From Pseudomonadota bacterium (GTDB lineage: Bacteria > Pseudomonadota > Alphaproteobacteria > Rhizobiales > JACESI01): a DNA stretch of 64,000 nucleotides. The stretch covers positions 4,134 to 68,133 of the forward strand of contig JBCDCU010000001.1 of assembly GCA_039181265.1 (NCBI GenBank), given 5' to 3'. Shown piece after piece: positions 10,455-36,331 of the stretch. The translations under genes were made by a program, and so were the position numbers. Under the pieces are notes generated by a model. That model was not told the DNA's origin. It ran no database searches and saw nothing but the letters and a program-made list of their open reading frames with translations. How positions within the stretch are numbered: the stretch's first letter is position 1; each line of letters starts with the position of its first letter.

Positions 10455-10480
10455 TGGCTGGCTTTTGAATTTGGCTGGCT
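10455..10480 (-). promoter_or_regulatory. Box A: TGGCTGGCT-N8-TGGCTGGCT direct repeat upstream of sigma-1
   Basis: Read directly; 136-161 nt upstream of the ATG at 10319. One of five related sites. Confidence 0.6.
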
Positions 10481-10667
10481 GGTGTCGCATTAGTGCGCGG
10501 TCGCCCGGAGTGGTCAACCCAGACGGGTTTCCGCAAAGGCTCTCTTCCCGCGACTGTGTTACCGCTGCAACATTCGTTTCGAAGGGCTCATCATGGCGCG
10601 AGATGGTTTTGTTCCTCCCCATCGTGGTGATGAGCGGGATACAACACAGAACAATCTCCCGGATTCA

Positions 10668-13001
10668 TCAAAACGAAATGGTTCCAGAAATCCCAAAAGT
10701 ACGCGGGCGCCCGACAACAAATCCCGAGCCCGTCGTGGAGGTGGTGAAGCGATTATCGGCAAGGTTTTTGATAAAACCATCTATTCGGGTGACCACGCCG
10801 TTGCTTACCTCGTGTTCATAGGCCGCTGAGACATCGACAACGACGTAGTTGTCCAATTCAGGGTCTCCGAGAAATGATGATTGCGCTCCAACAAACCTTG
10901 CGTCTAATGAAGCGGAAAAGCCAAAATCGGAGATATAGGATAGTCCGGCACTTGCTGTGATGCTCGGAGCTCTTGGCAAATCCGCGCCCTCGAATTGAGG
11001 GAGATTTGGGCCGGCATCCGTGATTTCCGTATCGAGAAGCCCTAAACCGCCGGTTAGTCTGACCCCTTCAAAAACTTCAAAACTTCCGTCCAGTTCCAGA
11101 CCAAGTCCGCGCGCTTCAGGTACATTCCCAAAGAGCTCAAGAACGCCTGCGGCGCCAGGTGTTTGAGCATCTTCGAACGTATAGAAAAAGGCGCTGCCAT
11201 TGATCGCCAAACGACTGTCAAACCATTGCGTTTTGGCAAAAATCTCGTGTTGGCGCAGGCGTTCTGAATCAAACTCGACAACAGTATTGGTGGGATCGAA
11301 AAGATCGAAATCGACACCACCCGGTCGGAAACCTTCCGAATAGGTGTATCCGATCCGCGCATCTTCGGTCAGATCATATCGCAAACCAACTTTTGGAATG
11401 AATGCTGTTTCTTCGACAAGCGTATCGCTTCCCGACCCCGCCAATGCAACAAAACGCTCGCGTTCGTCTATTTCAACACGAGCGCCGACTATCAGTGTCA
11501 AGCGCTCTAAAAGGTCAACCTCGGCTTCACCAAAGATACCGATATTCTCAATATCGGCATCCAAACTGAACGCACCTAGAAGTCCAACACCATTTGAAGC
11601 CTCGTCTTTCTGGGTTTCATAAGCAACTCCGAACAAGCCTTTCGAAAGTCTGCCAAAATCGTTCAACCTCACAAAGCCTTCTGCGGTCAACGTATCTGTG
11701 GTTTGCGTGATATCGAACAGAGGATTGCTTGGAGGAATTACAAATTCATTGTCCAGAAATGCCGCCTTGGTTTCCACAGTGATACGATCAGAAAGCTCGT
11801 AAATCACCGAGCCCGAGTAAACTGTCTGCTCGTTATCATCTACGGAGGTTGAATCAAAAAACGTCGCCAATTGGAGCAAACTCACCGGTTCGCTGACATC
11901 ACCCGGCTGAAACAACCGGACGCTCGACGAATCATCCACACTGAATTTTACAGATAGTCCAGGCACAGCATCCGGTGTGAAAAGGACTTTTCCGCGGAAG
12001 CGTCGAAATTCTTCATCCTCCACGAGATCTGCGGTTTCTGCAGACAAAGGTGGCAAAAATCCTGGCGGGAAAGACGTTGCCGCACCGGGCAGGACTTCAA
12101 CGAAGGTTTCACCGTCGGATGCTTCGGCTGTGAAGCGAACGGCAAGCTGGTCATCAACGATTGGGACATTGACTAAGAATGCACCACCAAGTGTTCCATC
12201 CTGATTGAAATAGTTGAGCCGGGCTTTAGCCTCAAATTTGTTAGTTGGGTCTTTTGTCTGAACTCGGATGGCTCCACCCAGCGCATTGCGACCTGTCGTC
12301 GTGGCCTGTGGTCCGCGCGCCACTTCTATCGCTTCGACATCCCAAACACTGTTTAAAGAAGGGGTTGCCCCGATTGTCAGCGGACGCGGAACGCCATCAA
12401 CGATAATGGGTACACGCGGTTGCGCACCAGTTGTGAACGAGTTGCCGCCAATCTGGCCCGCACTGCCGTCTATGCCGCGAATTGATGGCAGTTGGCCTCC
12501 TTCTTCATTCAAGACATTCGGTATACCTTGAATGGCCTCCCGTTGATCCAAATTCTGTGGGCGGTCAACACTGTCATCGAGAACCACGATACTGGGTGTA
12601 ATTTCCTGCAGACTTCGTCCGATTTTCTCGCCTTCGACAATCACCACTTCGTCGAGTAGGAAATCGCCATCCTGCGATGAGCCAACGCCTTGTCGCCCAC
12701 TTTCCGTCAGCGCAAAACTTCTGTCCGGGAGCTGAAGAAAAGACAAGCCGGTCCCCGCAACCATGGACATTAGAGCCTGTTTTGGCGTCAGCTGCCCTTT
12801 GACGGCACGGCTTGTTTTCCCGCGAACCAGACTGCTCTTTACGATGATGGCCCGACCGGTTTCCGCGCTGAGTTCGTTGATTGCGGCGTCTAGCGGTTGC
12901 GCCGGGACATCAATATCGCGGATTTCCTGTGCCTCAACCTTTACCGTAGCCGTGATTATCAAAGCGGCAGACAGTGCTGTCGTCATCAGCTTATTTTTCA
13001 T
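10668..13001 (-). CDS. TonB-dependent transducer with STN domain, cassette 2
   Basis: 777 aa, collinear with cassettes 1 and 3 (IDVPAQPLDAAINELSAETGRAI, LLDEVVIVEGEKIGRSLQEITPSIVVL, ...GISGTISF). Confidence 0.92.
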   Translation of the reverse strand: MKNKLMTTALSAALIITATVKVEAQEIRDIDVPAQPLDAAINELSAETGRAIIVKSSLVRGKTSRAVKGQLTPKQALMSMVAGTGLSFLQLPDRSFALTESGRQGVGSSQDGDFLLDEVVIVEGEKIGRSLQEITPSIVVLDDSVDRPQNLDQREAIQGIPNVLNEEGGQLPSIRGIDGSAGQIGGNSFTTGAQPRVPIIVDGVPRPLTIGATPSLNSVWDVEAIEVARGPQATTTGRNALGGAIRVQTKDPTNKFEAKARLNYFNQDGTLGGAFLVNVPIVDDQLAVRFTAEASDGETFVEVLPGAATSFPPGFLPPLSAETADLVEDEEFRRFRGKVLFTPDAVPGLSVKFSVDDSSSVRLFQPGDVSEPVSLLQLATFFDSTSVDDNEQTVYSGSVIYELSDRITVETKAAFLDNEFVIPPSNPLFDITQTTDTLTAEGFVRLNDFGRLSKGLFGVAYETQKDEASNGVGLLGAFSLDADIENIGIFGEAEVDLLERLTLIVGARVEIDERERFVALAGSGSDTLVEETAFIPKVGLRYDLTEDARIGYTYSEGFRPGGVDFDLFDPTNTVVEFDSERLRQHEIFAKTQWFDSRLAINGSAFFYTFEDAQTPGAAGVLELFGNVPEARGLGLELDGSFEVFEGVRLTGGLGLLDTEITDAGPNLPQFEGADLPRAPSITASAGLSYISDFGFSASLDARFVGAQSSFLGDPELDNYVVVDVSAAYEHEVSNGVVTRIDGFIKNLADNRFTTSTTGSGFVVGRPRTFGISGTISF

Positions 13002-13058
13002 CGCGCCCCATTCCCCGTTACTTGCGAAAAGACTTCTTTCACTGACTCAACGGATGGG

Positions 13059-13094
13059 GATCGAGTTTGTCCTATGAAAAATGACTTTTTTTGT
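13059..13094 (-). promoter_or_regulatory. Candidate ECF-dependent promoter of the cassette-2 receptor
   Basis: The minus strand reads GACAAAAAAAGTCA-N18-CGA. Confidence 0.4.
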
Positions 13095-13175
13095 CAGGAT
13101 TTTCCTCGTGATGGGTCAGGAAGCGAATAGGCGGATCCGCATACCCGATGAATCAGGAAGCTCGTCTCATGAGTG

Positions 13176-14093
13176 TTAGCGGTTCGAAACAAGCGTTCCG
13201 AGCGGTCCTGCCGACCTCACCGTTGCTCCGCTTGTCGCGGCAAGCGCCCTGAGCGCATCCATGGGACTGGTAAGGTTGAGGCGTCCCGAAACGCGTGTAC
13301 TCGCAAGCTCCGCGCCGATAATGATGACCGGGCCTGGAAGCCTGCGCTCAAGAACCTCAACAACTTCACCAAAGGTCATCCCATCGGCGACAAGGAAGCC
13401 TTCCCGCCATGTTGCGATCGTGTCAAAGCCAATGGCTTCAAGAATAGGATCCTCACCATCCGGCAATTGGAGGCTTTCACCGGAGCCAAGACTGAAGACA
13501 CGGCCAGCCCGTCGGACATCCACCGCCCCCTCGACCACCGCGACAAGAACCTTGTCGTCGAGCCTAGCAACCTCAAACGCCGTGCCGGTCACCTCGATAG
13601 CGGTTTCGTCTACGTCCACCACAAACCGCTTTTCGCCACTTTGGACTTCGAAAAAGGCGGCGCCTTTTAAAAGCGTCACGCGGCGAACATCCGTATCTGA
13701 TGCGTCGACCAGAGCGGTCGATGCGTCAAGATGCGTCCTATCACCGGAGGCGAGCGCTATTTGCTGCGTATCGAGGGCTGTGATTGCATCTGCACGCCAG
13801 TAAATCGAAACCGGCTCATAGGCGGCGTAGAGGGCAGTACCAGCCGCTATTGCGACAAGGATTGAGAGATAAGGCGGTTTTTTTGGTTTTGGCGTCAGCG
13901 CAAATTTCGCGGTTTTGACTGCACGCAGGACGCGTGCATAGGTCTTTCGTTCAGCCTCACCACGCGCAAGGAATGCCTCTTTTTCCCGTTGCGCCTGCAG
14001 ATCCTCGGGATCTTCGTTAAGGCGTCGAAAAATTTTGGCGGCCTCCTCGGCGCGCTGCACCTCATCCGGGTCCGGGTCATCAGGGTCGGACAT
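13176..14093 (-). CDS. FecR-family anti-sigma factor, cassette 2
   Basis: Paralogue of 8851-9768. The start is set to ATG 14093 (MSDPDDPDPDE). That reproduces the 70-72 nt sigma-FecR spacer seen in the other two cassettes. The ORF track extends to 14126. Confidence 0.85.
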   Translation of the reverse strand: MSDPDDPDPDEVQRAEEAAKIFRRLNEDPEDLQAQREKEAFLARGEAERKTYARVLRAVKTAKFALTPKPKKPPYLSILVAIAAGTALYAAYEPVSIYWRADAITALDTQQIALASGDRTHLDASTALVDASDTDVRRVTLLKGAAFFEVQSGEKRFVVDVDETAIEVTGTAFEVARLDDKVLVAVVEGAVDVRRAGRVFSLGSGESLQLPDGEDPILEAIGFDTIATWREGFLVADGMTFGEVVEVLERRLPGPVIIIGAELASTRVSGRLNLTSPMDALRALAATSGATVRSAGPLGTLVSNR

Positions 14094-14165
14094 GTTTGCC
14101 GGTTCCATTCGCCGTTCTCTTCTCACTTACATAACGAACGGGAACTGCAAATTGCCTGAAAAAAA

Positions 14166-14645
14166 TCAGTCGGTGAGGACACAGGTGATCGCAATGATGG
14201 TCTCTTCGACAAGACCGTGCGCGCGGGACCGTGACATTTCCAAACGCTTCCCGATATCCGCAAACGTGAGGCCATCGACAAAGCGCATATGAAAGGCTGC
14301 GACCGTTCTCTTCGGGAGTTTTTCAAGTGCACGCACCACGCGCGCAAGCTCCTGCCGGGCAATTAAGACCCGTTCGCTATCGAACTCAACCTCTTCAACG
14401 AGCATCAGCTCGGATAGAATCTGCTCCTCGGTTTGACGAGAGCGTGACCAGTCCAAAGCGAGGTTGGTAACGATACGTTTGAAGATTGGGAGGGCCTTCT
14501 CTGATGGGTATGCCTTTTTATCCCACCTGAGCCAGCTGTCCTGCACCAATTCCTCGGCTATTGCGCGGCTTTTCACCATACGCAGTGCAATGCCAATGAG
14601 GCGTTCTCTTTCATTGACGAAAGTCGAAAGTGCGGGATCTGCCAT
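14166..14645 (-). CDS. ECF sigma factor (FecI-like), cassette 2
   Basis: 159 aa, collinear with the other two (MADPALSTFVNERERLIGIALRMVKSRAIAEELVQDSWLRW). Confidence 0.9.
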   Translation of the reverse strand: MADPALSTFVNERERLIGIALRMVKSRAIAEELVQDSWLRWDKKAYPSEKALPIFKRIVTNLALDWSRSRQTEEQILSELMLVEEVEFDSERVLIARQELARVVRALEKLPKRTVAAFHMRFVDGLTFADIGKRLEMSRSRAHGLVEETIIAITCVLTD

Positions 14646-14774: not shown

Positions 14775-14801
14775 TGGCTGGCTGCGCACGCGTGGCTGGC
14801 T
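14775..14801 (-). promoter_or_regulatory. Box B: TGGCTGGCT-N9-TGGCTGGCT upstream of sigma-2
   Basis: Read directly; 130-156 nt upstream of the ATG at 14645. The palindrome CACGCGTG (14787-14794) spans the spacer and the first two bases of the second repeat. Confidence 0.6.
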
Positions 14802-15087
14802 AATGTCGGATTATACTGCGCCGATTAGTTGATTGCGGTCAACCCTGCAGTCATTATAGGTTCTCAGTACTATGAGATAGTGTTCCTTATGCAACATTCT
14901 AGAATTCCGAAAATAATCCGAGTTCTTTATTGTGCAATTACATCAGCATCGTCAGATCAATCTCATCAAGCACAGCGCGTTATATTTAATTGAACGCCCA
15001 GATTTAATATCAAGCAGATCGAAAACTTTCTGATCAAAAGATGGAGCGAATACCTCACCGCCAATCAACATTGCCCGCCCAAAAAAG

Positions 15088-16224
15088 CTAACCACGAACG
15101 CGGACTGGAATAACAAAATTCCGGCGGGCGCCAGATGGCGGTTTCGGAAAAGGGGCTGCTCGACGGACAAGATCAAGAGCAGCCTTATCCACCTCAGATG
15201 ACCCCGAACTCCTGGCAACAGAAATGCTTGAAATCCGTCCGTTCTGGGAAATGACAAATCGGATGCGTGCGGTACCCTTCCCTCCCACACGTTTCGCTCT
15301 CGTTCGCGCTATGCGTCTTTGAACTTTTCCGGGATAATTTGAGACGGCAGCATTACCGGCTTTCGCTTTGCGACGTTCGCCCTTTGCACTCTTTTCCTTA
15401 GATTTTCCGGATGTCTGACCGTCAGAAAGGCCCTTTTTTTTGTTTGCTGTCGAATTTGCGTTCTTACGGCCCTGCTTCTTTTCGGTTTTCTTCTTCTGAA
15501 CCTTCTTTTCCTGCGGCGGTTTCTTCTTGGTTGCCGCTTTCGGAGGAGCAGGTGGTTTAGGTTTAATAACTGGCGCAGGAGCAGCCTCAAGCTCAGGCAA
15601 AGGCTCAAGGCTTTCAACCGGTTCGATCGTTTCTATCGGTTCGATTTGATCTGGCGCCAATGCCGCGATTTGTTGGGGCGTCTCTACCGGTTCTGGAATG
15701 GGGGCATCCATCGGAAGAGGGCTCAACGGATCCGGTCTTGGTTGCGCTTCTGTCGGCACGGGCGGGATAGTCGACGCCTGCACAACCGGTCTCGGTTCGG
15801 CTGGTAGCTGTGCTTCAGGATTGACGGGGGGAAGGGTCTCCGTTGGCCTCAGTTGATCCATTGGCTCGGGATCTACTTCCACCATCTGTTCGATTTTTTC
15901 GTCAGTCGGCGTTTCGGTTGGCGTTTCAGTGTCTGTGACCTGTTCAAGGTCTGTATCGGGCTCCATTCGGTCGGGCTCGACCGGCTCCATTTCCGATATC
16001 TCGGCATCATCTTCAGCCACGACAGGGTCCATTGGCTCAAGCTGATCACCTTCCGCGACCATATCTTCGAAATCGTTTCCAAGCATCGCAACTTCGGTTG
16101 TCGCTCCGCCTGCGATCTCGGCTCTTTCCTCCGCCAGACTGAAGTAAACGAGAACGCCAAGATGTATGATTCCTGACGCCGCCAAGGCGAGAAGCGCTTT
16201 CGATAAAGTGCTTTGTGGCATCAC
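15088..16224 (-). CDS. tonB: TonB family energy-transducing protein
   Basis: N-terminal TM anchor, a long Pro/Glu/Lys-rich spacer, and a C-terminal TonB_C-like GTARIRFVISQNGRISSISVARSSGSSEVDKAALDLVRRAAPFPKPP. Overlaps exbD by 4 nt. Confidence 0.88.
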   Translation of the reverse strand: MMPQSTLSKALLALAASGIIHLGVLVYFSLAEERAEIAGGATTEVAMLGNDFEDMVAEGDQLEPMDPVVAEDDAEISEMEPVEPDRMEPDTDLEQVTDTETPTETPTDEKIEQMVEVDPEPMDQLRPTETLPPVNPEAQLPAEPRPVVQASTIPPVPTEAQPRPDPLSPLPMDAPIPEPVETPQQIAALAPDQIEPIETIEPVESLEPLPELEAAPAPVIKPKPPAPPKAATKKKPPQEKKVQKKKTEKKQGRKNANSTANKKKGLSDGQTSGKSKEKSAKGERRKAKAGNAAVSNYPGKVQRRIARTRAKRVGGKGTARIRFVISQNGRISSISVARSSGSSEVDKAALDLVRRAAPFPKPPSGARRNFVIPVRVRG

Positions 16225-16643
16225 AATCCCCGTTCTGTGACGACAACGACCCGAGCGGCCCCCTTCGACCGCAATTCATTGGAGAGCGCGACCAAATCAC
16301 GCGCTGGTAATTCTCTGTCCGGGACGATCCGGATGATCAGTGCGTTCTCATTTTCTTCAAAAGCACTATCGATCGCTTCGTCACGTCGAAAGGCAAGATG
16401 ATCATCGATCGTTGTGTCCGCACCACGAAAACTCAATCGCTTATCTGAGAAAATCAGCAGCGCATCCGGCGGCTCTTTGCCGTCGAGATTAGAGAGTTTG
16501 ATGAGTGACAGATCGCGATCAATCGGTGCAGCGAGCGTTCCGGCGATGAGAAAGAAAATCAGCATCAAGAATACGATGTTGATCAGCGCAATGGTTGGTT
16601 CGGCCTTTTTTCGCGGGACTTTCGATGTCAGTTTGCCTGCCAC
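16221..16643 (-). CDS. exbD: ExbD/TolR family biopolymer transport protein (second copy)
   Basis: 140 aa; the N-terminus EPTIALINIVFLMLIFFLI is typical of ExbD. Confidence 0.85.
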   Translation of the reverse strand: MAGKLTSKVPRKKAEPTIALINIVFLMLIFFLIAGTLAAPIDRDLSLIKLSNLDGKEPPDALLIFSDKRLSFRGADTTIDDHLAFRRDEAIDSAFEENENALIIRIVPDRELPARDLVALSNELRSKGAARVVVVTERGL

Positions 16644-16644
16644 G

Positions 16645-17028
16645 TTACTGCACCAAGGTTATGCGAACAGGTGCTGCACGGGTCAACGAGACCATGGTTT
16701 CGATCAGAACCTGGGAGGTTAACGTTTCGCCGATCGAGAGTATGACGATATCCGATCCCTTCTCATGCAGTTCAGCCACCTCAATCTCCGCTTCTTCCAG
16801 TGTTCTTATCTGCCCGTTGACCGTCAGAGTTTCGGCATCGCGTTTGATGAAGATGGGCGGTTCTTGCGATCTTGTCGCGCCCGCTGAACCACTGGCAGTA
16901 ACGAGATCAAGTTCGCCAAATTTCGAAAATGTCGATGACAGCATAAAAAAGAGCAGCAAGAGAAAGATGACGTCGATCAAAGACGTCATCGAGAGTGTCC
17001 TGCGCCGAAATCGCTTCTTTGCAAGCAC
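16645..17028 (-). CDS. exbD: ExbD/TolR family protein (first copy)
   Basis: 127 aa; MTSLIDVIFLLLLFFML is the ExbD signature. Confidence 0.85.
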   Translation of the reverse strand: MLAKKRFRRRTLSMTSLIDVIFLLLLFFMLSSTFSKFGELDLVTASGSAGATRSQEPPIFIKRDAETLTVNGQIRTLEEAEIEVAELHEKGSDIVILSIGETLTSQVLIETMVSLTRAAPVRITLVQ

Positions 17029-17039
17029 GCTTTCCTCCG

Positions 17040-17744
17040 CTATCGGGCCGCTAGGGCCTCTGTCGGTTCAAGTTGTCTATTGGTGCTTTGAATGGGCGCG
17101 CCAACCGGTTGAGGTCCAAGAAGGCGGCTTATGATCAATTCGGCGGCTTGCCTTTCCCGCGCAACCCGGCTCTCGAAATAGGTCAAAAAGAGCGACGTTG
17201 GCATGGCCACTGCCAAACCAACAGCCGTTGTCAGCAAGGCGACCCAGATGCCGCCGGCCAGTATTGAAGGATCAACCGCGTTTCCCGCGTTCTGCAGTTT
17301 CTGAAAGGCTTCAATCATGCCGAGAACTGTTCCAAAGAGGCCCAGGAGCGGAGCAATCTGTGCGACTGAATCGAGGATCCGAAAGCCGCGTTCAAGCTTT
17401 GAGAGGCTCTGGTCTGCTTCAACGCTGAGATAGCTTTCCAACTGATTGTCTTCAGGCTTTTGAAGCCGTTGCGCATGAAGAGCTCTCATTGCGTCATGTG
17501 CAATTCGATCACTTAGCGATTTGCGATCAGAGACTAACGCAAGCCCCTTGGATTCATGTCCCGATGCCCAATCAGCAACAGCGTTCATGGCCCGTTTATG
17601 GATGCCGACGCCTGCCATTACGAACTGAACCGCTTTGTAGAGCGCGACAGCTAGCGATATGACTGAGAGGATCAAAAGCAAGACGACAACGGGGCCGCCG
17701 AGGTCAACAATATTCCGGAATTGCTCTGTAAGCGCCGCAATCAT
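17040..17744 (-). CDS. exbB: ExbB/MotA/TolQ family proton channel
   Basis: 234 aa; APLLGLFGTVLGMIEAF and ILAGGIWVALLTTAVGL are the MotA/TolQ/ExbB core. Confidence 0.9.
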   Translation of the reverse strand: MIAALTEQFRNIVDLGGPVVVLLLILSVISLAVALYKAVQFVMAGVGIHKRAMNAVADWASGHESKGLALVSDRKSLSDRIAHDAMRALHAQRLQKPEDNQLESYLSVEADQSLSKLERGFRILDSVAQIAPLLGLFGTVLGMIEAFQKLQNAGNAVDPSILAGGIWVALLTTAVGLAVAMPTSLFLTYFESRVARERQAAELIISRLLGPQPVGAPIQSTNRQLEPTEALAAR

Positions 17745-17749
17745 GATCC

Positions 17750-18220
17750 CTATCCAATCAGTTCAAGCTTGGTTTTTGTCTCAAGTTTGAGTTCTTTTTC
17801 GCAAAGGGTTGCATCTGCTCCGGCCACTTTGCAGACTGACGTGCCGTTGATGAGGATGCGGCCCAAATCAGTGCATGCGGTCTTTGGAACAGCAAACTGG
17901 CGGACCCTCGGACGTCCATTCGGCAGTGCCTTAAAGTCAAACAGAGTCAGGCGCAAAAACGTTCCGCTTGCATCAAAGAGAACCGTCTCCAGCGACAGGC
18001 TGTCGATATCTTTGCCGGTTGTATTATTGGCTAGAAAAACCAGCCGGCACCTCTCTCCATCTTGCTGAGTTGCATTGAGCTCTATTGAGAGGCCAGAGCT
18101 TCCGGTCTCCTCGCTGTAAGCGGGCGCAAAACTCACCATACACACAAGGAGCGCCGACAAAATGGGAAGAAAAAATCGTTTGAAGGGAAGCGAACCGTTG
18201 TGTCGAATACGCGGCATCAA
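17750..18220 (-). CDS. Secreted/periplasmic hypothetical protein, first gene of the exbB-exbD-exbD-tonB operon
   Basis: 156 aa; signal-peptide-like FFLPILSALLVCMVSFAPAYS; 5-nt gap to exbB. I recognise no family. Confidence 0.6.
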   Translation of the reverse strand: MMPRIRHNGSLPFKRFFLPILSALLVCMVSFAPAYSEETGSSGLSIELNATQQDGERCRLVFLANNTTGKDIDSLSLETVLFDASGTFLRLTLFDFKALPNGRPRVRQFAVPKTACTDLGRILINGTSVCKVAGADATLCEKELKLETKTKLELIG

Positions 18221-18249
18221 TGCACTCCATTGGCGGCAGTTACATGATG

Positions 18250-18276
18250 CGGCTGGCTGGTTTTGACTGGCTGGCT
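18250..18276 (-). promoter_or_regulatory. Box C: cGGCTGGCT-N9-TGGCTGGCT upstream of the exbB/tonB operon
   Basis: Read directly; 30-56 nt upstream of the ATG at 18220. Confidence 0.6.
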
Positions 18277-18439
18277 AACATCTATTTCTGAGTTTTTCGC
18301 TCAGAATAACGAAGCCTGTCAACGTCAAAAATGGCGCAGGGCGAAACGTCTGTTGCGAAAAAACAACCACTTGGTGTGAAAGAAAGAAGGTTCATATTTT
18401 ATCTTGACTAAAAAGGTCAGCAATTAAAAGGTAGTGTAA

Positions 18440-18477
18440 AGCCAGCCGATCGGGGCGCTTTTCCCGATAGCCAGCCA
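18440..18477 (+). promoter_or_regulatory. Box E: AGCCAGCCG-N20-AGCCAGCCA (same motif, gene-sense orientation) upstream of the plus-strand receptor
   Basis: Read directly. The 20-nt spacer ATCGGGGCGCTTTTCCCGAT can form an ATCGGG/CCCGAT hairpin. The site is 84-121 nt upstream of the ATG at 18561. Confidence 0.5.
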
Positions 18478-18560
18478 ACCTCATGAGATGTGGCGCATGT
18501 GCTGGCTTTCTTTCATCAAAAAACCAGCTCTAGCGTCCGGACTGCGGAACGGAATGGGTA

Positions 18561-20873: not shown

Positions 20874-20880
20874 AGGCACT

Positions 20881-21219
20881 ATGATCGCTATCATCCTGAC
20901 ATCTGTTCTTCTTCTGGCTGCGTTTTCAGCGTTCGTCTATGCCGCCCGGCGCGCCGGTAAAACGACTGCAAACACGATCAACGTACTGTCAGGTCTGAGC
21001 GGACGATTAGTCGGCTCAGGTTTGTTATTCGCAAGCCTTCTGCCGGTCGTCTCAATCTTCGGACTCGAGATCGGATTACCAATCTGGTTGGGCCTTGCGA
21101 CGGTCAGTGCTGTCTGTGTTCTTTGGGTTGGGGTGAGGCGCAACCTCTTTATTGTCATGCTGGGAATTTTTCCGGTCGCATCGAGCGCATTTTGCTCAGG
21201 TGCGGCTTTTGCCTGCTGA
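20881..21219 (+). CDS. Small integral membrane protein
   Basis: Hydrophobic ORF of about 112 aa directly after the receptor stop. ATG 20881 is preceded by GAGG. Confidence 0.55.
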   Translation: MIAIILTSVLLLAAFSAFVYAARRAGKTTANTINVLSGLSGRLVGSGLLFASLLPVVSIFGLEIGLPIWLGLATVSAVCVLWVGVRRNLFIVMLGIFPVASSAFCSGAAFAC

Positions 21220-21257
21220 CCGATGATGATCGAACATGAAACTCTAGAGGAACATTT

Positions 21258-21512
21258 TTGCTGCGCTTACTTTGCATTTTGATCATTTCTGCGATTGCGA
21301 CGATCCTGCTGGCGTCTGCGGTGATCATTCACCTTCCTTTTGATCGCGGTGACACGCTGATCTGGTCGGGATTGATGGTGCCGATCATATGGGCTTGCCT
21401 GGTCGTCTTTGCCTACTGGTACGACCGGGCGTGGCGAGGTTTCGCGGTCCTCGGCGCGGTGACTGCTGTTTCCGCACTCCTTATTGTTTTTCGAGATAGC
21501 GGAGGCACTTGA
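21258..21512 (+). CDS. Small integral membrane protein (TTG start)
   Basis: 84 aa with 3 hydrophobic segments; GAGGAA lies 6 nt upstream; the end overlaps the PepSY gene start by 4 nt. Confidence 0.55.
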   Translation: MLRLLCILIISAIATILLASAVIIHLPFDRGDTLIWSGLMVPIIWACLVVFAYWYDRAWRGFAVLGAVTAVSALLIVFRDSGGT

Positions 21513-23059
21513 GAATGAATCGTGACCGGCTGAAGCGGCTATACCACCTCCATTCTCTCATCGGCATAGCCTTCGGCTGGATGGTTTTCGTCGTCGTCTT
21601 TTCCGGCATCCCGGCTCTATTCTACGAAGAAATGAAAACCTGGGAGGATCCGGCCAACCGCATCGTATTGCAGCAGGAGCCAATCGAACTTCTACCGCTT
21701 CTCGAAAACCTCATTGAGGAAGAGGCGAAGGGCAAAGAGATCGAGTCGATTTTCTCTTTGCTCCCGACGGCAATGCACCCCTTCTACGAACTGCGTTTAC
21801 GGGCCGAGGATCCTCAGACAGGAGATCATATTGAGCTCGTTCGGAAATGGAATCCGAACGATGGCATGCCGATTGCCGAACGGGGTGAAGGGTTCTCGAC
21901 CTGGCTCACCGACTTCCACCGAAACTTTATGATCGAAGGGACGGTCGGACGGGCCCTTGTCGGATTAGTCGGTGTTTTTCTGCTGATCTCGGTGGTGACC
22001 GGCGTTCTTACGCACCGGAAAATGATCGCTGAAATGTTCACATGGCGCTTGGATCGGTCGGTCCGTCTGAAATGGCAGGATACCCATAAAATTCTTGGTC
22101 TCTGGGGGCTCCCTTACGCAGCGATGATCGCCTTTACCGGTGCGTTCCTCGGTCTTCTTGTGATCATGCTGCCAGCGACAGCTTTGTTGGTTTTCAACGG
22201 TGACCGTGAAGCCATTGGGGATGCGTTAAGTGGGCCACCAGTGGTTGAGACCGGGGTCATGTCCGAGATGCATTTGTTTAATCCGCTTCGTGAGCGCGCG
22301 GCCGAAGCGGTCGGCCGTATGCCGGAACGGCTCACTATTCAAAGATGGGGTGATGAAAGCGCTCACTATGTGTTCCTTTATAAGATCGAAGGCCATTTGC
22401 TGCGCTATGGAAGTTATGTGGTCAGCGGTTCTTCAGGAGACTTTATCGAAAACCGTCTGACACAAGGCCCTGGGGCTGCCTGGCGGGTGGTCTCATCAAT
22501 CACGCCGCTCCATTACGCCACCTATGGCGGCATATGGCTTAAGGTTCTTTATGCGGTTCTTGCCGTTGGGCTTTGTGTTGTGATTGCGACTGGTTCAATG
22601 ATGTGGCTTGAACGGCGCCTGCACGGAAATGAAGGAAGATGGTCGAACACGACCTACAGGATACTGGGTCATCTGACGACCGGAATTATGACTGGGGTAA
22701 TTCTGACGTCTGCAGCACTCTTTCATGTCGATACCGTCATTTCCGTAGACCCGGAAAATCGATTGTTCTGGATCGGTGTGAGTTATTTTTCCATCTGGAT
22801 CCTCGCGATTGGTTACACGCTCCTGCGGCGCAATGATTATCGCGCCTGCCGGGAAATCCTTGCTGCATCGGCCTTGTTTCTCGTTGCGATACCGTTGTCG
22901 AATGCAGTGTTTAAAGGGGCGGCGGTGTCCCATGTATATGCGCCGGAACATGCGTTCGTTTGGGGCGTCGATCTTGCCGGTATTGTTCTTGGTATTCTTA
23001 TGATCGTGGTGACTTTCTATCTGCCTCGAAAGCGGATGGTCGGCATGAAATCGGCCTAA
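21509..23059 (+). CDS. PepSY-associated TM-helix protein (PiuB-like)
   Basis: LKRLYHLHSLIGIAFGWMVFVVVFSGIPALF is the family-typical N-terminus; polytopic, 516 aa. Confidence 0.85.
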   Translation: MRMNRDRLKRLYHLHSLIGIAFGWMVFVVVFSGIPALFYEEMKTWEDPANRIVLQQEPIELLPLLENLIEEEAKGKEIESIFSLLPTAMHPFYELRLRAEDPQTGDHIELVRKWNPNDGMPIAERGEGFSTWLTDFHRNFMIEGTVGRALVGLVGVFLLISVVTGVLTHRKMIAEMFTWRLDRSVRLKWQDTHKILGLWGLPYAAMIAFTGAFLGLLVIMLPATALLVFNGDREAIGDALSGPPVVETGVMSEMHLFNPLRERAAEAVGRMPERLTIQRWGDESAHYVFLYKIEGHLLRYGSYVVSGSSGDFIENRLTQGPGAAWRVVSSITPLHYATYGGIWLKVLYAVLAVGLCVVIATGSMMWLERRLHGNEGRWSNTTYRILGHLTTGIMTGVILTSAALFHVDTVISVDPENRLFWIGVSYFSIWILAIGYTLLRRNDYRACREILAASALFLVAIPLSNAVFKGAAVSHVYAPEHAFVWGVDLAGIVLGILMIVVTFYLPRKRMVGMKSA

Positions 23060-24977: not shown

Positions 24978-24998
24978 CTGCTTCTCCAAGCCGTGGTT

Positions 24999-25434: not shown

Positions 25435-27759
25435 CTAAAATGACAGAGTACCGGATATCCCGAAGGTACGCGGGCGACCGACGACGACAAAGCCTTCTGC
25501 AAAATCAGCCGTGATGTAACGATTATCAGCAACGTTGTTGATGAACCCGTCGATCCGGCCCACCACCCGGTCATTGATTTTGTGCTCATAGCCCGCAGCA
25601 AGATCGACGACGACATAGCTATCCAACGCCCCTTCACCCAAGTCATCGACGATTGAGCCTACGAAGCGTGCGTTGACAGATGCGGAAAGGCCAAAATCGG
25701 ATACATAGGAAAGACCGCCATTTGCCGTGACGCCCGGCGCATCGGGGAGGTCCGCGCCAAGGGACGCCGCAGCTACTCCGACAGTACCCGTGACATCTGT
25801 GATCTCAGTGTTAAGCAAGCCGAGGCCGGCACTTAAGATCAAGCCGTCCAGGATCTCAAAGCTGCCATCAAGTTCCAGGCCGAAACCGCGGGCTTCCGGA
25901 ATATTTCCGACGAGGCCGAATAAAGAGGAAGCCTCGGATTCCGGCGCCGCCCCAACGACTTGAGCATCCATTAGTGTGTAGTAAAAGGCACTGGCATTCA
26001 GAAGTAATCTGCCATCCAGTTGCTCCGTCTTGACGAAAACTTCATGCTGATTCAGGCGCTCTGAATCAAATTCGACGACTAGTCCCGTCGGATCAAAGAA
26101 ATCAAAATCGACGCCACCTGGACGAAAGCCCTGGGAATAGGTGTACCCAACGCCGAGATCATCATTGACGTCATATCTGAGACCGACTTTTGGAATAAAC
26201 GCCGTTTCACTGATAGATGTATCGGTTCCAACTCCGGCAAAGGCGAATGAACGATCACGACTGTCAATCTCAACGCGTGCACCCGCTATGAGGGTCAGTT
26301 TGTCAGTGATGTCGAATTCAGCCTCTCCGAAGATACCGATATTTTTGATGTCGCCATCAACGTCGATCGCCAGGAACGTATCGTTGACGGCATCATCGAC
26401 CTGGTTTTCATAGGCGACACCGAACAGGCCCTTGGAAAATCGGCCGAGGTCTTTGAACGTCACGAAACCTTCGGCTGTGACGGTTTCGGTGCTTTGTTCA
26501 AGATCAAAAAGGTCACTCAGCCCCGGCGGAAATCGGAAGGTGTTGTCCAGAAAAGCTGCTCTGCCTTCAACGGTGATACGGTCCGACACCTCGTACTTGA
26601 CCGAGCCCGAATAAACGGTTTGATCGTTCTCTTCAAACTCCGGGCTAAGGAGAAAACTCGACCGTACCAACGGATCGCCAGGGGCGTCGACGATACCGGG
26701 CGTTTCAAGCCCGGAACTGGATGTATTGTCGACAGTGAACTTCAATTCCAGTCCGGGCACGGCTTCCGGTGTGAAGAGCACTTTGCCGCGAAAACGGCGG
26801 AATTCTTCATCCTCGATGACGTCAACCGCTTCTGCTGAAACGTCCCCTCCGAGCGCGAACGGCAAAACTTCGACAAAGGATTCGCCATCAGACGCCTCAG
26901 CCGTGAAACGAACAGCGAGTTGGTCATCAACGATCGGCACGTTGAGAAGGAAAGCGCCACCAATGGTCCCATCCTGATTGAAATAGTTTATGCGTGCTTT
27001 GCCCTCCAATTCGTTGGTCGGATCTTTTGTCTGGATGCGAACGGCCCCGGCAAGAGCATTTCGGCCGGTTGTCGTTGCTTGCGGACCACGCGCGACCTCA
27101 ATTGCTTCGACATCCCAAACGCTCGCTAGTGAGGGTACGGCGCTGCCTACCAAAGGCCGTGGCACGCCATCAATAATAACGGGTACACGCGGTTGAGACC
27201 CTGTCGAAAGCGCTGGCCCACCTATGATGTTCGTTCCTTGGACACCCCTGATCGATGGGAGAGAGTCTCCCTCCTCATTGAGAACGTTCGGAATACCTTG
27301 AATGGCTTCGCGTACGTCAAAGTTTTTCGGTGTGTCAGCTTCCTCCCCGAGAACCACAATACTCGGAGTTACTTCTTGCAGGCTTCGACCAATTTTCTCG
27401 CCCTCGACAATGACAACTTCATCGAGCAGGACGTCCCCATCCTGCGAAGACGCGGCCTCGGTTAGCGTGAATGTGCGATCTGGGAGTTCAACAATGGAGA
27501 GGCCGGAACCTTCAACCATCAATTGCAGCGCCTGGTAGGTTGTTAACTCGCCTGCAACCGCGCGACTGGTCTTACCAAGCGTCAGGCGCCGACTGCCAAT
27601 AATCGCTCGGCCGGTTTCAGAACTCAATTCACTGATTGCATTGTTGAGCGGTTGCGCGGGGACGTCGATTGGTTGCGTGTCTTGCGAGAGCCCCTGTGCG
27701 GTTCCCATTATCACCAGACTCAATGACATCGTTGTTGTCATCAGCGTATTTCTAAACAT
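25435..27759 (-). CDS. TonB-dependent transducer with STN domain, cassette 3
   Basis: 774 aa, collinear with cassettes 1 and 2 (IDVPAQPLNNAISELSSETGRAI, LLDEVVIVEGEKIGRSLQEVTPSIVVL, ..GISGTLSF). Confidence 0.92.
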   Translation of the reverse strand: MFRNTLMTTTMSLSLVIMGTAQGLSQDTQPIDVPAQPLNNAISELSSETGRAIIGSRRLTLGKTSRAVAGELTTYQALQLMVEGSGLSIVELPDRTFTLTEAASSQDGDVLLDEVVIVEGEKIGRSLQEVTPSIVVLGEEADTPKNFDVREAIQGIPNVLNEEGDSLPSIRGVQGTNIIGGPALSTGSQPRVPVIIDGVPRPLVGSAVPSLASVWDVEAIEVARGPQATTTGRNALAGAVRIQTKDPTNELEGKARINYFNQDGTIGGAFLLNVPIVDDQLAVRFTAEASDGESFVEVLPFALGGDVSAEAVDVIEDEEFRRFRGKVLFTPEAVPGLELKFTVDNTSSSGLETPGIVDAPGDPLVRSSFLLSPEFEENDQTVYSGSVKYEVSDRITVEGRAAFLDNTFRFPPGLSDLFDLEQSTETVTAEGFVTFKDLGRFSKGLFGVAYENQVDDAVNDTFLAIDVDGDIKNIGIFGEAEFDITDKLTLIAGARVEIDSRDRSFAFAGVGTDTSISETAFIPKVGLRYDVNDDLGVGYTYSQGFRPGGVDFDFFDPTGLVVEFDSERLNQHEVFVKTEQLDGRLLLNASAFYYTLMDAQVVGAAPESEASSLFGLVGNIPEARGFGLELDGSFEILDGLILSAGLGLLNTEITDVTGTVGVAAASLGADLPDAPGVTANGGLSYVSDFGLSASVNARFVGSIVDDLGEGALDSYVVVDLAAGYEHKINDRVVGRIDGFINNVADNRYITADFAEGFVVVGRPRTFGISGTLSF

Positions 27760-27819
27760 GCCCCAAACCCTTGCTGATTTTGTGAAAATGACTGCTTTTC
27801 ACTGAGTCAACGTTCGAGA

Positions 27820-27855
27820 CATTCGAATGTGTTGCTAAAAATTGATTTTTTTTCT
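27820..27855 (-). promoter_or_regulatory. Candidate ECF-dependent promoter of the cassette-3 receptor
   Basis: The minus strand reads GAGAAAAAAAATCA-N17-CGA. Confidence 0.4.
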
Positions 27856-27918
27856 CAAGTTTGAGAATTCCGCGGCACAAGTGCGGAGCATACCGGCGTA
27901 AAACAGGTAAGGTTGGTG

Positions 27919-28836
27919 TTAGTTGTTCCTCACAATTGTTATGATCGGCGACGCTGACGTGACAGTAGCACCGCTGCCAAGTGCCAGGGCCTCAAGGGCG
28001 CCAAGCGGATTTCCAAGGTCCAAGCGACCATCAAATTCCTCGTTGGCAAGGTCTTTATCAAGAATAATCACAGGCCCCGGAATGCGCCGATCAAGGATTT
28101 CGACCACCTCTTGAAACGACATGCCATCGGTCACGATGAGACCGTCCCGCCATGTTGCCATATCCGTAATTGGCAGATTCTCGATAATGGGCTCTAGACC
28201 ATCCCGGTATCGGAGCTGGTCCCCGGCCTCAAGGCGCACAGCTTTGTTGTGAACGACAACATCCACGGTTCCCTTTGCAACAGAGACCACGAGCTGGTCT
28301 TCGAATCTCGTCACTTCGAATTCTGTGCCCACCACCTCAACGATGACGTCATCAATCCGAACACGGAACGGTTGGGATTGTCGTTCTACCTGAAAATACA
28401 CTGCTCCTCTAAGAAGCGAGACTTGACGTCGAATGTCGTTGGTTTGATCTATTATCGCGCTGGAGGCATCGAGCGTGATGGTATCGCCGGACAGAAGGTC
28501 AACCGTTCTAATTTCGCCAGCGGTGATGTGATCCGCGCGCAGATACACTGAGATCGGCTCGAACATCATATAAAGGAAACCGCCCAGTATAACCGCCAAT
28601 AGAATGGAAACACGCGGCGGGCCTTTGGGTTTTCGGCCAAGCGCTTTTGACGCAAGGCTAACACCTTTGAGTAATCGGGCGTAGGTGTCGCGTTCAGCGT
28701 CGCCTCTGGCGAGAAAGGCGTCGCGGTCGCGTTGCGCCTGAAGGTCGTTCGGGTCATCTTCGAGGCGTTGATGAATATCGGCCGCTTCAATCGCCCGCTT
28801 AAACTCTTCTGGATCCAGGTCATCTTGATCCGCCAT
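27919..28836 (-). CDS. FecR-family anti-sigma factor, cassette 3
   Basis: 305 aa, collinear with the other two FecR-like proteins. Confidence 0.88.
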   Translation of the reverse strand: MADQDDLDPEEFKRAIEAADIHQRLEDDPNDLQAQRDRDAFLARGDAERDTYARLLKGVSLASKALGRKPKGPPRVSILLAVILGGFLYMMFEPISVYLRADHITAGEIRTVDLLSGDTITLDASSAIIDQTNDIRRQVSLLRGAVYFQVERQSQPFRVRIDDVIVEVVGTEFEVTRFEDQLVVSVAKGTVDVVVHNKAVRLEAGDQLRYRDGLEPIIENLPITDMATWRDGLIVTDGMSFQEVVEILDRRIPGPVIILDKDLANEEFDGRLDLGNPLGALEALALGSGATVTSASPIITIVRNN

Positions 28837-28906
28837 TAATTCCGGCCCCGATCTTCAACGTCTTTTACCTGGGTAACGTAAAGCGCGGCGAAATGTTTTG
28901 CGAAAA

Positions 28907-29386
28907 TCAGTCTTTGAGTACGCAGGTCACAACAGCGAGTGCATGTTTTACAAGGCCATGTGCCCGAAAACGAGAGAGATTTAGTCGCGTCCCGATTTCA
29001 GTGAATGTCAGGCCGTCCACCAGGCGAAGCCGGAATGCGGTAACGGTTTTCTCAGGCAGGCTTTCGAGGACTCTGACGACGCGAAGAAGCTCCTGGCGGG
29101 CAATGACAATGCGCTCCGAGTCGACATCAACATCTTCATAAAGCTTCAAATCAAATAGAATTTGTTCTTCCGTCCGGTTTGAACGGGTCCAGTCTTTTGC
29201 AAGGTTCGATACAATGCGCCGGAAAATCGGAAGCGCTTTGTCGGATGGGTAGTTCTTATGCGCCCAGCGCAGCCAGCTGTCTTGAACAAGCTCTTCAGCA
29301 ACGGCTCTGCTACGGACTACTCGAAGGGCGACCGAGATCAGTACCTCTCGTTCTTTGATAAAAGTTGTAAGGGCTGGATCTGCCAT
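28907..29386 (-). CDS. ECF sigma factor (FecI-like), cassette 3
   Basis: 159 aa; MADPALTTFIKEREVLISVALRVVRSRAVAEELVQDSWLRW. Confidence 0.9.
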   Translation of the reverse strand: MADPALTTFIKEREVLISVALRVVRSRAVAEELVQDSWLRWAHKNYPSDKALPIFRRIVSNLAKDWTRSNRTEEQILFDLKLYEDVDVDSERIVIARQELLRVVRVLESLPEKTVTAFRLRLVDGLTFTEIGTRLNLSRFRAHGLVKHALAVVTCVLKD

Positions 29387-29513
29387 CTACTCGCCACCAC
29401 TCTTTTAAGATCGACAGGTCTTTGCTGTTTTCCGGCTTCCCTGGTCTTTCATTGGCATGGTCGTTTCCAATGATACGGAAAGCAGCGTGTCGCTCTTGAA
29501 GATGTTTTTCGAT

Positions 29514-29540
29514 TGGCTGGCTTCGCATGCGTGGCTGGCT
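29514..29540 (-). promoter_or_regulatory. Box D: TGGCTGGCT-N9-TGGCTGGCT upstream of sigma-3
   Basis: Read directly; 128-154 nt upstream of the ATG at 29386. The spacer contains the palindrome CGCATGCG. Confidence 0.6.
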
Positions 29541-32773: not shown

Positions 32774-32776
32774 GAT

Positions 32777-36325: not shown

Positions 36326-36331
36326 GGCGCA

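Follow-up and report, generated by a model that had tools for sequence, protein, structure and literature searches.

The window analysed here, a 64-kb stretch of DNA from a MAG of an uncultured alphaproteobacterium, contains an iron region with three clusters on the minus strand, each consisting of genes for a sigma factor of 159 aa, FecR and a receptor (TBDR). The clusters are paralogues, with protein identities of 68-71%. An earlier note on this DNA had described three ECF sigma genes and an exbB-exbD-exbD-tonB operon in an alphaproteobacterial host; the host assignment was confirmed, and the gene context was borne out by Pfam:

9840-10319, minus strand: FecI-type ECF sigma gene 1 (Pfam), followed by FecR (8851-9768) and an STN-domain TBDR (6394-8745)
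14166-14645, minus strand: ECF sigma gene 2 (Pfam), followed by FecR (13176-14126) and a TBDR (10668-13001)
28907-29386, minus strand: ECF sigma gene 3 (Pfam), followed by FecR (27919-28836) and a TBDR (25435-27759)
15088-18220, minus strand: operon for a 156-aa hypothetical protein, ExbB, ExbD, ExbD and TonB (Pfam)
18561-23059, plus strand: operon for a siderophore-type TBDR, a DUF3325-like protein, a small membrane ORF and PepSY_TM (Pfam and NCBIfam)

The receptors of the window are of the siderophore type and not of the heme type (Pfam/NCBIfam). The region also displays an integrase gene (133-1479), a tRNA-Arg gene (30126-30202) and a lower G+C content, and looks like an acquired island.

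The earlier note had placed four direct-repeat boxes, A to D, in front of the regulatory and energy-transduction operons only. All four were recovered by a pattern search of the window, in which boxes A, B and D are exact copies of TGGCTGGCT-N-TGGCTGGCT on the plus strand and box C is a near-exact one (cGGCTGGCT-N9-TGGCTGGCT). The exact pair pattern had no match in 100 dinucleotide-preserving shuffles of the window, giving a chance expectation of 0 compared to the 3 exact boxes. A fifth box, E, had been overlooked; it precedes the TBDR operon, and the restriction to regulatory and energy-transduction operons therefore fell, while the four assignments stood. With box E added to boxes A to D, there is thus a box at every primary promoter of the iron region. 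The five boxes, which we describe as HmuP-responsive element (HPRE) pairs, are as follows, with distances given to the start codon:

10455-10480, minus strand: box A, AGCCAGCCA-N8-AGCCAGCCA, exact match, 135 nt 5' of ECF sigma gene 1, kept at the orthologous site 14172-14197 of locus L121
14775-14801, minus strand: box B, AGCCAGCCA-cgcgtgcgc-AGCCAGCCA, exact match, 129 nt 5' of ECF sigma gene 2
29514-29540, minus strand: box D, AGCCAGCCA-cgcatgcga-AGCCAGCCA, exact match, 127 nt 5' of ECF sigma gene 3
18250-18276, minus strand: box C, AGCCAGCCA-gtcaaaacc-AGCCAGCCG, 29 nt 5' of the first gene of the exbB-exbD-exbD-tonB operon
18440-18477, plus strand: box E, AGCCAGCCG-N20-AGCCAGCCA, ending 84 nt 5' of the TBDR gene (18561-20873, plus strand) of the TBDR-PepSY_TM operon

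All five boxes are intergenic, within the non-coding share of the window (roughly 10%), and the shared orientation reported for the first four extends to the fifth, the coding strand of the downstream gene reading AGCCAGCCA in each case. The palindromes CACGCGTG in box B and CGCATGCG in box D are as previously described, and the spacer of box E forms the palindrome ATCGGG-N8-CCCGAT. No copies of the box were found in the coding DNA of the window or in the 34 kb that lie beyond the iron region. Nor does the box occur in the three FecR-to-TBDR intergenic regions, which share another conserved motif, different from the box.

Footprinting of orthologous promoters agreed with the proposal in the earlier note that the box is an oriented, conserved cis-regulatory element of iron-uptake operons. 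The repeats were kept and the flanks had diverged at all orthologous sites of a sister MAG locus (L121) and in two additional sigma clusters (L122). The ortholog of box B (L121 9841-9867) retained both repeats and almost the same spacer between diverged flanks, that of box E (L121 6223-6261) had exact repeats and a spacer of 21 nt, and that of box C was degenerate (TGCCAGCCA-N9-AGCAAGCCA), while the two L122 clusters bear a pair of the box D type, AGCCAGCCA-cgcatgcga-AGCCAGCTA. When the three sigma upstream regions were aligned, the repeats and TTGAC were the sole conserved blocks. Across 24 non-identical regions upstream of sigma homologues of 38-53% identity, GCCAG occurred between positions -115 and -35 on the coding strand in 27 instances versus 1 on the other strand, often directly 3' of CTATAT, with a density in this stretch of 14.1 per kb versus about 1 per kb elsewhere. 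Distant sigma homologues thus retain, 5' of the gene, a GCCAG element that is degenerate and strand-specific.

A TTGAC hexamer is located 30-40 nt before the start of each of the five boxes, and plausible -10 hexamers lie 7-11 nt before the boxes, the exb promoter having no convincing one. The predicted promoter elements are:

10488-10517, minus strand: sigma gene 1, predicted sigma-70 promoter TTGACC-N18-CTAATG, its -10 hexamer 7 nt from box A (11 promoters in an anchored comparison)
14813-14842, minus strand: sigma gene 2, predicted promoter TTGACC-N18-CAGTAT, its -10 hexamer 11 nt from box B (promoter comparison)
29552-29581, minus strand: sigma gene 3, predicted promoter TTGACG-N18-CTAAAC, its -10 hexamer 11 nt from box D (promoter comparison)
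18286-18322, minus strand: putative exb promoter region, with TTGACA at 18317-18322 and, after it, the perfect palindrome TTCTGAG-N7-CTCAGAA at 18286-18306, just 5' of box C and kept in L121
18404-18419, plus strand: putative TBDR promoter region, TTGACT overlapped by TGACT-N5-GGTCA, a TGA-N9-TCA palindrome (promoter comparison)

The -10 hexamers in the L122 paralogues of sigma promoter 3 read CTAGAT and CTACAT, and a consensus promoter scan of 18200-18580 detected no promoter. Since the boxes lie 3' of the -10 hexamers of predicted sigma-70-type promoters, they are predicted to be transcribed as the start of the leader, the transcription start sites being predictions as well. Such a position at the 5' end of the predicted leader suits an RNA element, although from the sequence it might also be that of a roadblock operator; folding of the leaders gave no significant structure involving the repeats, and no RNA mechanism was visible from the folds. 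The exb palindrome includes TGA-N9-TCA and may be a repressor operator separate from box C. Palindromes of this kind are limited to the exb and TBDR promoters, where they could be the repressor sites, and the L121 counterpart of the one in the TBDR promoter is perfect (TGACTGAaTCAGTCA).

The box had been said to match no known operator. In sequence, it is the HPRE direct repeat known from heme-receptor mRNA leaders. As quoted in PMC9131926 and PMC9241770, the AGCCAGCC direct repeat was described as the HPRE in the leader (5'UTR) of shmR in Ensifer meliloti by Amarelle, Koziol and Fabiano in 2019 (Biometals 32:273) and predicted 5' of heme receptors in alpha- and betaproteobacteria, in which PMC9241770 calls this direct repeat widespread. 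The HPRE of C. violaceum chuR reads AGCCAGCCgacAGCCAGCCAGCG / CCCGCAAGCCAGCCGACAGCCAGCCAGCG, and that of the siderophore receptor gene vbuA contains GCCAGCCAGACG (PMC9131926). The consensus applied here combines the quotations in the citing papers with the loci inspected in this analysis. The core (A)GCCAGCC(A) is common to our boxes and those of shmR, chuR and vbuA, which likewise have two direct sense-strand copies between promoter and start codon; the boxes and shmR are, moreover, both alphaproteobacterial and both tied to TonB-dependent iron uptake.

The same motif is physically linked to hemP elsewhere. Chelatococcus sp. CO-6 has GCCAGCCAGCC-N18-AGCCAGCCAGCC, in receptor orientation, between the annotated hemP and the gene for a TonB-dependent heme receptor, and in Phyllobacterium zundukense GCCAGCCAGC is located about 30 nt 5' of the heme receptor ATG and opposite hemP, in a receptor operon that runs on into tonB. 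A genome scan with the exact pattern gave 120 loci; in three of these, from unrelated MAGs (L054, L023 and L068), a Pfam-confirmed hemP ORF adjoins the box, which in L054 is followed by a TBDR gene. The novelty lies in the targets: genes for fecI-type ECF sigma factors, the exbB-exbD-exbD-tonB operon and an operon with a siderophore-type receptor. One target is a TBDR gene, as in the known receptor leaders, but the other four are not receptor genes, and the receptors are of the siderophore type with PepSY_TM partners rather than of the heme type. The canonical examples inspected lie about 20-60 nt from the start codon, compared to 127-135 nt for the sigma boxes, which appear to lie at the extreme 5' end of the leader and have no hemP nearby.

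Genes for FecI-type sigma factors and tonB operons are classically under the control of Fur, or of Irr and RirA in alphaproteobacteria. The box occupies the same circuit position, the primary sigma promoter that gates the whole surface-signalling cascade. However, it bears no resemblance to the Fur, ICE or IRO sequences or to the Iron-Rhodo box, in agreement with the earlier note, and it is a direct repeat and no palindrome, is placed 3' of the -10 hexamer and probably acts positively, not as a repressor site. The suggestion that an iron-responsive repressor uses the box as its operator is at odds with the positive action of the HPRE, on which HemP/HmuP is reported to work post-transcriptionally through the 5'UTR or as a transcriptional activator, depending on the species (PMC9131926, PMC9241770).

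The trans factor expected for an HPRE is a member of the HemP/HmuP/ChuP family of small heme-binding regulators (Pfam PF10636), whose gene adjoins this repeat in Chelatococcus, Phyllobacterium, L054, L023 and L068. Unlike in these genomes, searches of the 64-kb window, the orthologous loci (20 kb) and the 80 metagenome loci of the sigma family yielded no hemP, and the best match of a five-sequence HemP HMM to the window had E = 1. The mechanism of the family is disputed between transcriptional co-activation and post-transcriptional activation, and the S. maltophilia member is a repressor (PMC9131926, PMC9241770, PMC12772443).

We consider it unlikely, although not negligibly so, that the box is a DNA operator, both repeats of which would be bound as double-stranded DNA, around +1 to +30, by an uncharacterised regulator that obstructs or modulates RNA polymerase according to iron. 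In each of the five promoters the predicted transcription start lies within or directly beside the repeats, a classic repressor position, the sigma promoters at A, B and D have no other recognisable iron operator, the spacers of B- and D-type boxes are conserved DNA palindromes, and action of HemP/HmuP at the DNA level has been reported in B. japonicum and B. multivorans (PMC9131926, PMC9241770). On the other hand, a positive element dependent on HmuP is already known with this motif and is hemP-linked in unrelated genomes, ChuP did not bind motif-carrying DNA (PMC9131926), and no candidate regulator gene adjoins any of the >100 loci inspected. The repeat period varies, with 11 nt in C. violaceum, 17-18 nt at most sites and 29-30 nt in Chelatococcus and at box E, which does not suggest a rigid, helix-phase-dependent DNA dimer site.

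Action at the RNA level by other means and independent of HemP-family proteins, as the target of a trans-acting sRNA or, for example, as a C/A-rich tract for Rho loading or S1 binding, seems to us quite improbable. It would fit an element that is strictly strand-specific, located in the predicted leader, C/A-rich and by prediction largely unpaired, with no hemP gene nearby, and GCTGGCTTT at 18501-18509, 3' of box E, is a 9-nt exact complement that can pair with the first repeat. Yet the window has no candidate for a complementary transcript bearing UGGCUGGCU, an Rfam search of it gave tRNA only, and the linkage to hemP in other genomes speaks for a protein factor. Rho loading would in addition make the site a negative element, whereas chuR and vbuA, which bear the HPRE, have lower transcript levels in a chuP mutant (PMC9131926). 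That the boxes are non-functional, being left over from paralogous duplication or belonging to a dispersed REP-like repeat, and travelled with the sigma-FecR-TBDR cassettes when these were copied, is largely refuted by the conservation data and is the faintest of prospects, despite the paralogy of the clusters and the island-like look of the region: the alignment upstream of the sigma genes conserves only the repeats and TTGAC, the genes behind boxes C and E are unrelated, the orientation is the same at all five sites, and the repeats persist in the sister MAG and, with the 27:1 strand bias, in degenerate form in distant homologues. The absence of copies from coding DNA and the other 34 kb likewise disagrees with the REP/BIME-like repeat considered in the earlier note.

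The box is most likely a positive, HemP/HmuP-dependent leader element. We think it probable that each box is an HPRE pair in the leader, acted on by a HemP/HmuP-family protein or a functional equivalent. The pair would lie directly 3' of a sigma-70-type promoter (TTGAC-N18-CTAnAT-like) and form the first ~30-45 nt of the transcribed leaders of five operons, the three for fecI-type ECF sigma and anti-sigma factors, exbB-exbD-exbD-tonB and TBDR-PepSY_TM. A small protein of this family encoded outside the window, or its equivalent, would act on the repeats and raise expression, most likely via the nascent or mature leader RNA, for instance by protection of the 5' end. The analysis establishes what the motif is, its strand and position, its conservation and its physical linkage to hemP elsewhere; that it acts at the RNA level, in which direction it regulates and which trans factor serves it in this organism are inferred. 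There are precedents for wider targets in a siderophore TBDR under ChuP control (PMC9131926) and in the S. maltophilia operon containing exbB2-exbD2-tonB2, which requires HemP (PMC12772443). Counting against a role for HemP are the S. maltophilia ECF sigma gene hemI, which is unaffected by it (PMC12772443), and the siderophore-type receptors of the window, with which the classical heme link is absent. If the proposed reading is true, cell-surface signalling cascades in their entirety, together with the Ton energy system, would be under a positive control that is used elsewhere for heme receptors.

The pattern TGGCTGGCT-N(7-11)-TGGCTGGCT occurred exactly three times in the window, each time upstream of a FecI-type ECF sigma gene, and had no matches across 100 dinucleotide-preserving shuffles. 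A one-mismatch search for the 9-mer recovered two further pairs, one upstream of the exbB-exbD-exbD-tonB operon (box C) and one, on the opposite strand, upstream of an operon for a TonB-dependent receptor (TBDR) and a PepSY_TM protein (box E). The earlier note had described four boxes; all four were thus confirmed as a real repeat, while the fifth, box E, had been missed.

10455-10480: box A, exact pair, upstream of a sigma gene
14775-14801: box B, exact pair, upstream of a sigma gene
29514-29540: box D, exact pair, upstream of a sigma gene
18250-18276: box C, upstream of the exb operon
18440-18448 and 18469-18477: box E, + strand reading AGCCAGCCG-N20-AGCCAGCCA, ending 84 nt upstream of the TBDR gene (18561-20873)

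Nine of the ten half-sites in these boxes were AGCCAGCCA or differed from it at a single base, and each of the five boxes was a pair of direct repeats, with AGCCAGCCA on the coding strand of the gene that follows. All five fell within non-coding DNA, which makes up approximately 10% of the window, with spacers of 8, 9 and 20 nt, and no copies were found outside the iron region in the remaining 34 kb of the window. When the regions 5' of the three sigma genes were aligned, block conservation was confined to the pair of 9-mers and a TTGAC hexamer.

The sigma genes belong to three paralogous clusters that encode a sigma factor (159 aa), FecR and a TBDR with an STN domain, the sigma proteins being 68-71% identical to each other. 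The products of the exb operon are a hypothetical protein of 156 aa, ExbB, two ExbD proteins and TonB, and the iron region also contains the TBDR-PepSY_TM operon (all Pfam assignments). The first gene of the exb operon (17750-18220, - strand), the best match of which was to DUF3157 at a non-significant E = 0.003, is found in the same position in L121, a locus of a sister MAG. The receptors scored best against the siderophore-receptor subfamily, and their partners are PepSY_TM proteins. The nearest named relatives of the Aas protein were from Pelagibius (59-60% identity), Kaistia, Inquilinus and Kiloniellaceae, and the organism is therefore an alphaproteobacterium. The iron region is delimited by the following features.

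133-1479, + strand: tyrosine integrase with an Arm-DNA-binding domain, at the left edge
30126-30202, - strand: tRNA-Arg(CCT), at the right edge
30313-45911, - strand: complete [NiFe]-hydrogenase cluster directly beyond the tRNA, with the small and large subunits, cytochrome b, HupH, HybE-rubredoxin and HypA, B, C, D, E and F
32777-34255: sigma-54 response regulator within the hydrogenase cluster

The G+C content is 51-53% in the iron region (1-30000) as compared to 55-57% in the adjoining hydrogenase cluster, and the entire iron-uptake region may be a genomic island. No att repeat matching the tRNA-Arg 3' end was found inside the window. An integrase remnant is also located upstream of a sigma cluster in L122, another locus of the sister MAG.

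[quoted passage not shown] The HPRE of chuR in C. violaceum, predicted by Amarelle et al. (2019), is quoted as CCCGCAAGCCAGCCGACAGCCAGCCAGCG (PMC9131926), and a second HPRE, GCCAGCCAGACG..., is located upstream of the siderophore receptor gene vbuA (PMC9131926). Both genes need ChuP, a member of the HemP family, for full transcript levels, and binding of ChuP to DNA was not seen (PMC9131926). Taking a consensus from such secondary quotations and from the loci compared here, we found the HPRE core GCCAGCC / AGCCAGCC(A) in the window boxes, nine of the ten half-sites of which match the core of both the published chuR element and the hemP-receptor repeats of Chelatococcus. As for other HPREs, the copies are direct and on the sense strand (five of five boxes) and the host is an alphaproteobacterium, as judged from the Aas relatives. 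The main departure from the HPRE family is in the targets, which are three ECF sigma genes, the exb-tonB operon and one siderophore-type TBDR; none of the boxes precedes a gene for a TonB-dependent heme receptor. The known targets of HemP/HmuP are essentially heme receptors.

In Chelatococcus sp. CO-6, GCCAGCCAGCC-N18-AGCCAGCCAGCC is located between an annotated hemP and a heme receptor gene in the orientation of the receptor, and in Phyllobacterium zundukense GCCAGCCAGC is found about 30 nt before the ATG of the heme receptor, opposite hemP, with the receptor operon continuing into tonB. Two copies of a variant repeat, CCAGCAAGCC, are present in the heme-receptor leader of Paracoccus alcaliphilus (L214, about 1320-1350). 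A Paracoccus denitrificans locus with three repeats (L106) was dropped as a reference, its downstream genes not being clearly iron-related. The heme-receptor leaders of the Rhodobacterales loci L214 and L216 (Ketogulonicigenium) contain CCAGCAAGCC or AGCAAGC instead of GCCAGCC, and this variant matches the AGCAAGCCA half-site of the degenerate box C in L121. Because of this agreement, position 4 of the 9-mer seems, from the sequences compared, to tolerate a change from C to A.

A genome scan with the exact pattern gave at least 120 loci, and the window's own genome was not among the matches listed. Most of the matches listed are inside long open reading frames across many phyla and look like chance occurrences, and three loci among them have a hemP open reading frame, confirmed by PF10636, beside the box. 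One of these has the box followed by a TBDR gene (L054), while the other two, L023 (1225-1492) and L068 (738-1053), are from Planctomycetota MAGs in which an HPRE pair lies beside hemP, whereas the HPRE is described only for alpha- and betaproteobacteria in the literature consulted. In a Pirellulaceae MAG (L013, 4830-4896), an HPRE pair directly follows a Fur-box-like palindrome, ATTGAGAATGATTCTCAAT. A full-text literature search for the 9-mer matched primers and eukaryotic sequences only. The idea in the earlier note that the box matches no known operator is thus superseded by the chuR quotation and the hemP-linked loci: the motif is the HPRE direct repeat, already described, and the novelty is in its targets and lineage. 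The note was nevertheless right that the box is unlike the Fur, Irr and RirA operators, since the Fur box, the Irr ICE and the RirA IRO are palindromes (GATAATGATAATCATTATC, TTTAGAA-N3-TTCTAAA and TGA-N9-TCA, respectively) with no similarity to this C/A-rich direct repeat.

The sigma family of the window is rare, with 45 matches that were all from uncultured "Pseudomonadota" MAGs or metagenomes. Footprinting of orthologous promoters, as the earlier note had proposed, located the box at all orthologous sites of the sister MAG GCA_039180865.1 (sigma 97% identical), in which the flanks and some of the spacers have diverged, and a second contig of that MAG contains two further sigma clusters, both with the box. 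Upstream of sigma homologues at 56-60% identity the exact motif was lost, but AGCCA(A)GCC...AGCCAG-type repeats were still located directly 5' of the gene. Scanning metagenomes brought in 80 loci from the sigma family, and motifs were counted 5' of the closest homologues (38-53% identity), in 24 regions of which no two were identical. From position -115 to -35 these contained 27 GCCAG on the coding strand versus 1 on the reverse strand, a density of 14.1 per kb as compared to about 1 per kb further upstream, and GCCAG often came immediately after CTATAT. Being kept in the sister MAG and, in degenerate form, across homologues, the element is by sequence comparison an old and strand-specific feature of the leaders in this sigma family.

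The spacers of boxes of the B and D type read CGC(G/A)TGCG(A/C), a near-palindrome that is kept across paralogues and in both MAGs while the flanks diverge. Boxes A, C and E have spacers unrelated to it.

14784-14792 and 29523-29531: window
9850-9858: L121
5245-5253 and 9844-9852: L122

The promoters were compared at 11 sites from the window and the sister MAG, anchored on the first repeat, and the distance from TTGAC to the start of the box was 30-40 nt at all of them. In the sigma promoters, the predicted -10 hexamer (CTAATG, CAGTAT, CTAAAC, CTAGAT or CTACAT) is located 18 nt past TTGAC and 7-11 nt before the box and fits the alphaproteobacterial -10 consensus, which is CTATAT-like; boxes A, B and D are thereby preceded by predicted promoters of the TTGAC-N18-CTAnAT-like type. 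The predicted -10 hexamers of the promoters of boxes C and E are weak, and a simple consensus scan found no promoter in the DNA that separates the exb operon from the TBDR gene. Since the boxes follow TTGAC and a -10-like hexamer, the repeats would, by prediction, make up the initial stretch of the leader transcript. Next to boxes C and E, and separate from them, are two palindromes in which TGA-N9-TCA occurs.

18286-18306, - strand: TTCTGAG-N7-CTCAGAA, between the -35 hexamer and box C
18405-18419, + strand: TGACT-N5-GGTCA, which overlaps the TBDR promoter's -35 hexamer

L121 has kept both, the one on the TBDR side being perfect there (TGACTGAaTCAGTCA), and they are possible repressor operators, RirA-IRO-like or of another type, that are distinct from the HPRE. 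Another motif, (T/C)TGAnAAAAAAA(G/A)TCAnnTTTTT, recurs between FecR and TBDR genes in all three clusters as well as in the L121 orthologues, and is probably the promoter for the cognate ECF sigma factors; the AGCCAGCCA box is absent from all three of these regions in the window.

8828-8838, - strand: FecR-to-TBDR motif
13082-13092, - strand: FecR-to-TBDR motif
27843-27853, - strand: FecR-to-TBDR motif

The best-supported reading of these sequences is that the boxes represent HPRE pairs, carried by the leaders of five iron-uptake operons, on which a HemP/HmuP-type factor would act to raise expression. Searches with a regular expression and an HMM identified no hemP gene in the window, the orthologous 20-kb loci or the metagenome loci, and the best window match to a five-sequence HemP HMM had E = 1 (64 kb of the MAG covered). 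There is precedent for a non-heme target in the control of vbuA by ChuP (PMC9131926). In S. maltophilia, an operon with exbB2-exbD2-tonB2 among its genes depends on HemP (PMC12772443), and the ECF sigma gene hemI of this species is HemP-independent (PMC12772443). The operon of P. zundukense is a further precedent for a target that contains tonB.

A mode of action at the RNA level is favoured since the boxes are located 3' of where the -10 hexamers are predicted, conservation holds strictly on one strand, the repeats allow a variable period (11, 17-18 or 29-30 nt at the sites verified) and work on C. violaceum (PMC9131926) and E. meliloti agrees. Against it are the lack of a distinctive structure in the leader folds and the action at the DNA level that other laboratories have reported for the HemP/HmuP family (PMC9131926, PMC9241770). 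Folding of the five leaders gave no shared or significant structure; leader A alone folded better than shuffles (z = -2.8), with the repeats outside that structure. To our knowledge, HemP/HmuP has no recognisable nucleic-acid-binding domain. In the leader of box E, GCTGGCTTT (18501-18509, + strand), 24 nt 3' of the box, is perfectly complementary over 9 nt to the first repeat and its 5' flank (AAAGCCAGC) and pairs with the first repeat in the predicted fold, a pairing that could represent an HPRE-sequestering stem. L121 has GGCTGG at the equivalent position.

Compared with control through an HPRE pair, it is unlikely that the boxes are repressor operators at +1, and less likely still that they are sRNA targets or some other RNA feature. 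A duplication relic or a REP-like repeat is effectively excluded, being contradicted by the conservation and orientation data: REP/BIME-like repeats are palindromic, have many copies and are located mostly at 3' ends of genes, whereas here there are only five copies, all 5' of genes and all sense. A generic repeat of this kind, which the earlier note had considered, would be scattered with no promoter or orientation bias; both biases were present, and the window had no copies outside the iron region. We also rejected a sigma-54 promoter (TGGCAC-N5-TTGCW), for which the spacing does not fit and TGGC is on the strand opposite to that of each downstream gene, and an OmpR/PhoB-type repeat and an ECF -35/-10 pair were ruled out by orientation, spacing or copy distribution. 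A broader version of the HPRE reading is possible, if rather doubtful, namely that the HPRE is a general tag of the iron-uptake regulon in an uncultured marine alphaproteobacterial lineage. It would there take the place of a classical repressor operator in the primary promoters that drive several fecI-type sigma genes and the Ton system, and a HemP-type or unknown factor at the 5' end of the leader RNA would gate surface signalling.

HemP/HmuP and the HPRE are a poorly understood pair, and laboratories are split on whether the action is on DNA or RNA. Here, a single 20-kb region contains five independent and strongly conserved HPRE pairs at a fixed place just past the predicted promoter, preceding regulators and an energy-transducing complex rather than heme receptors; we found no report of HPREs 5' of fecI-type sigma genes in the literature consulted. 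For annotation, the lesson is that a seemingly orphan motif was assignable to a described but little-known element. If the pairs are functional, their natural spacing variants would help to decode how the HPRE is read, and HemP/HPRE would form the uppermost level of a hierarchy, above ECF surface signalling. If the general-tag reading is true, the family-wide element in sigma leaders and the hemP-linked HPREs of Planctomycetota would imply that control by HemP/HPRE extends to far more targets and taxa than the role so far described at heme receptors.
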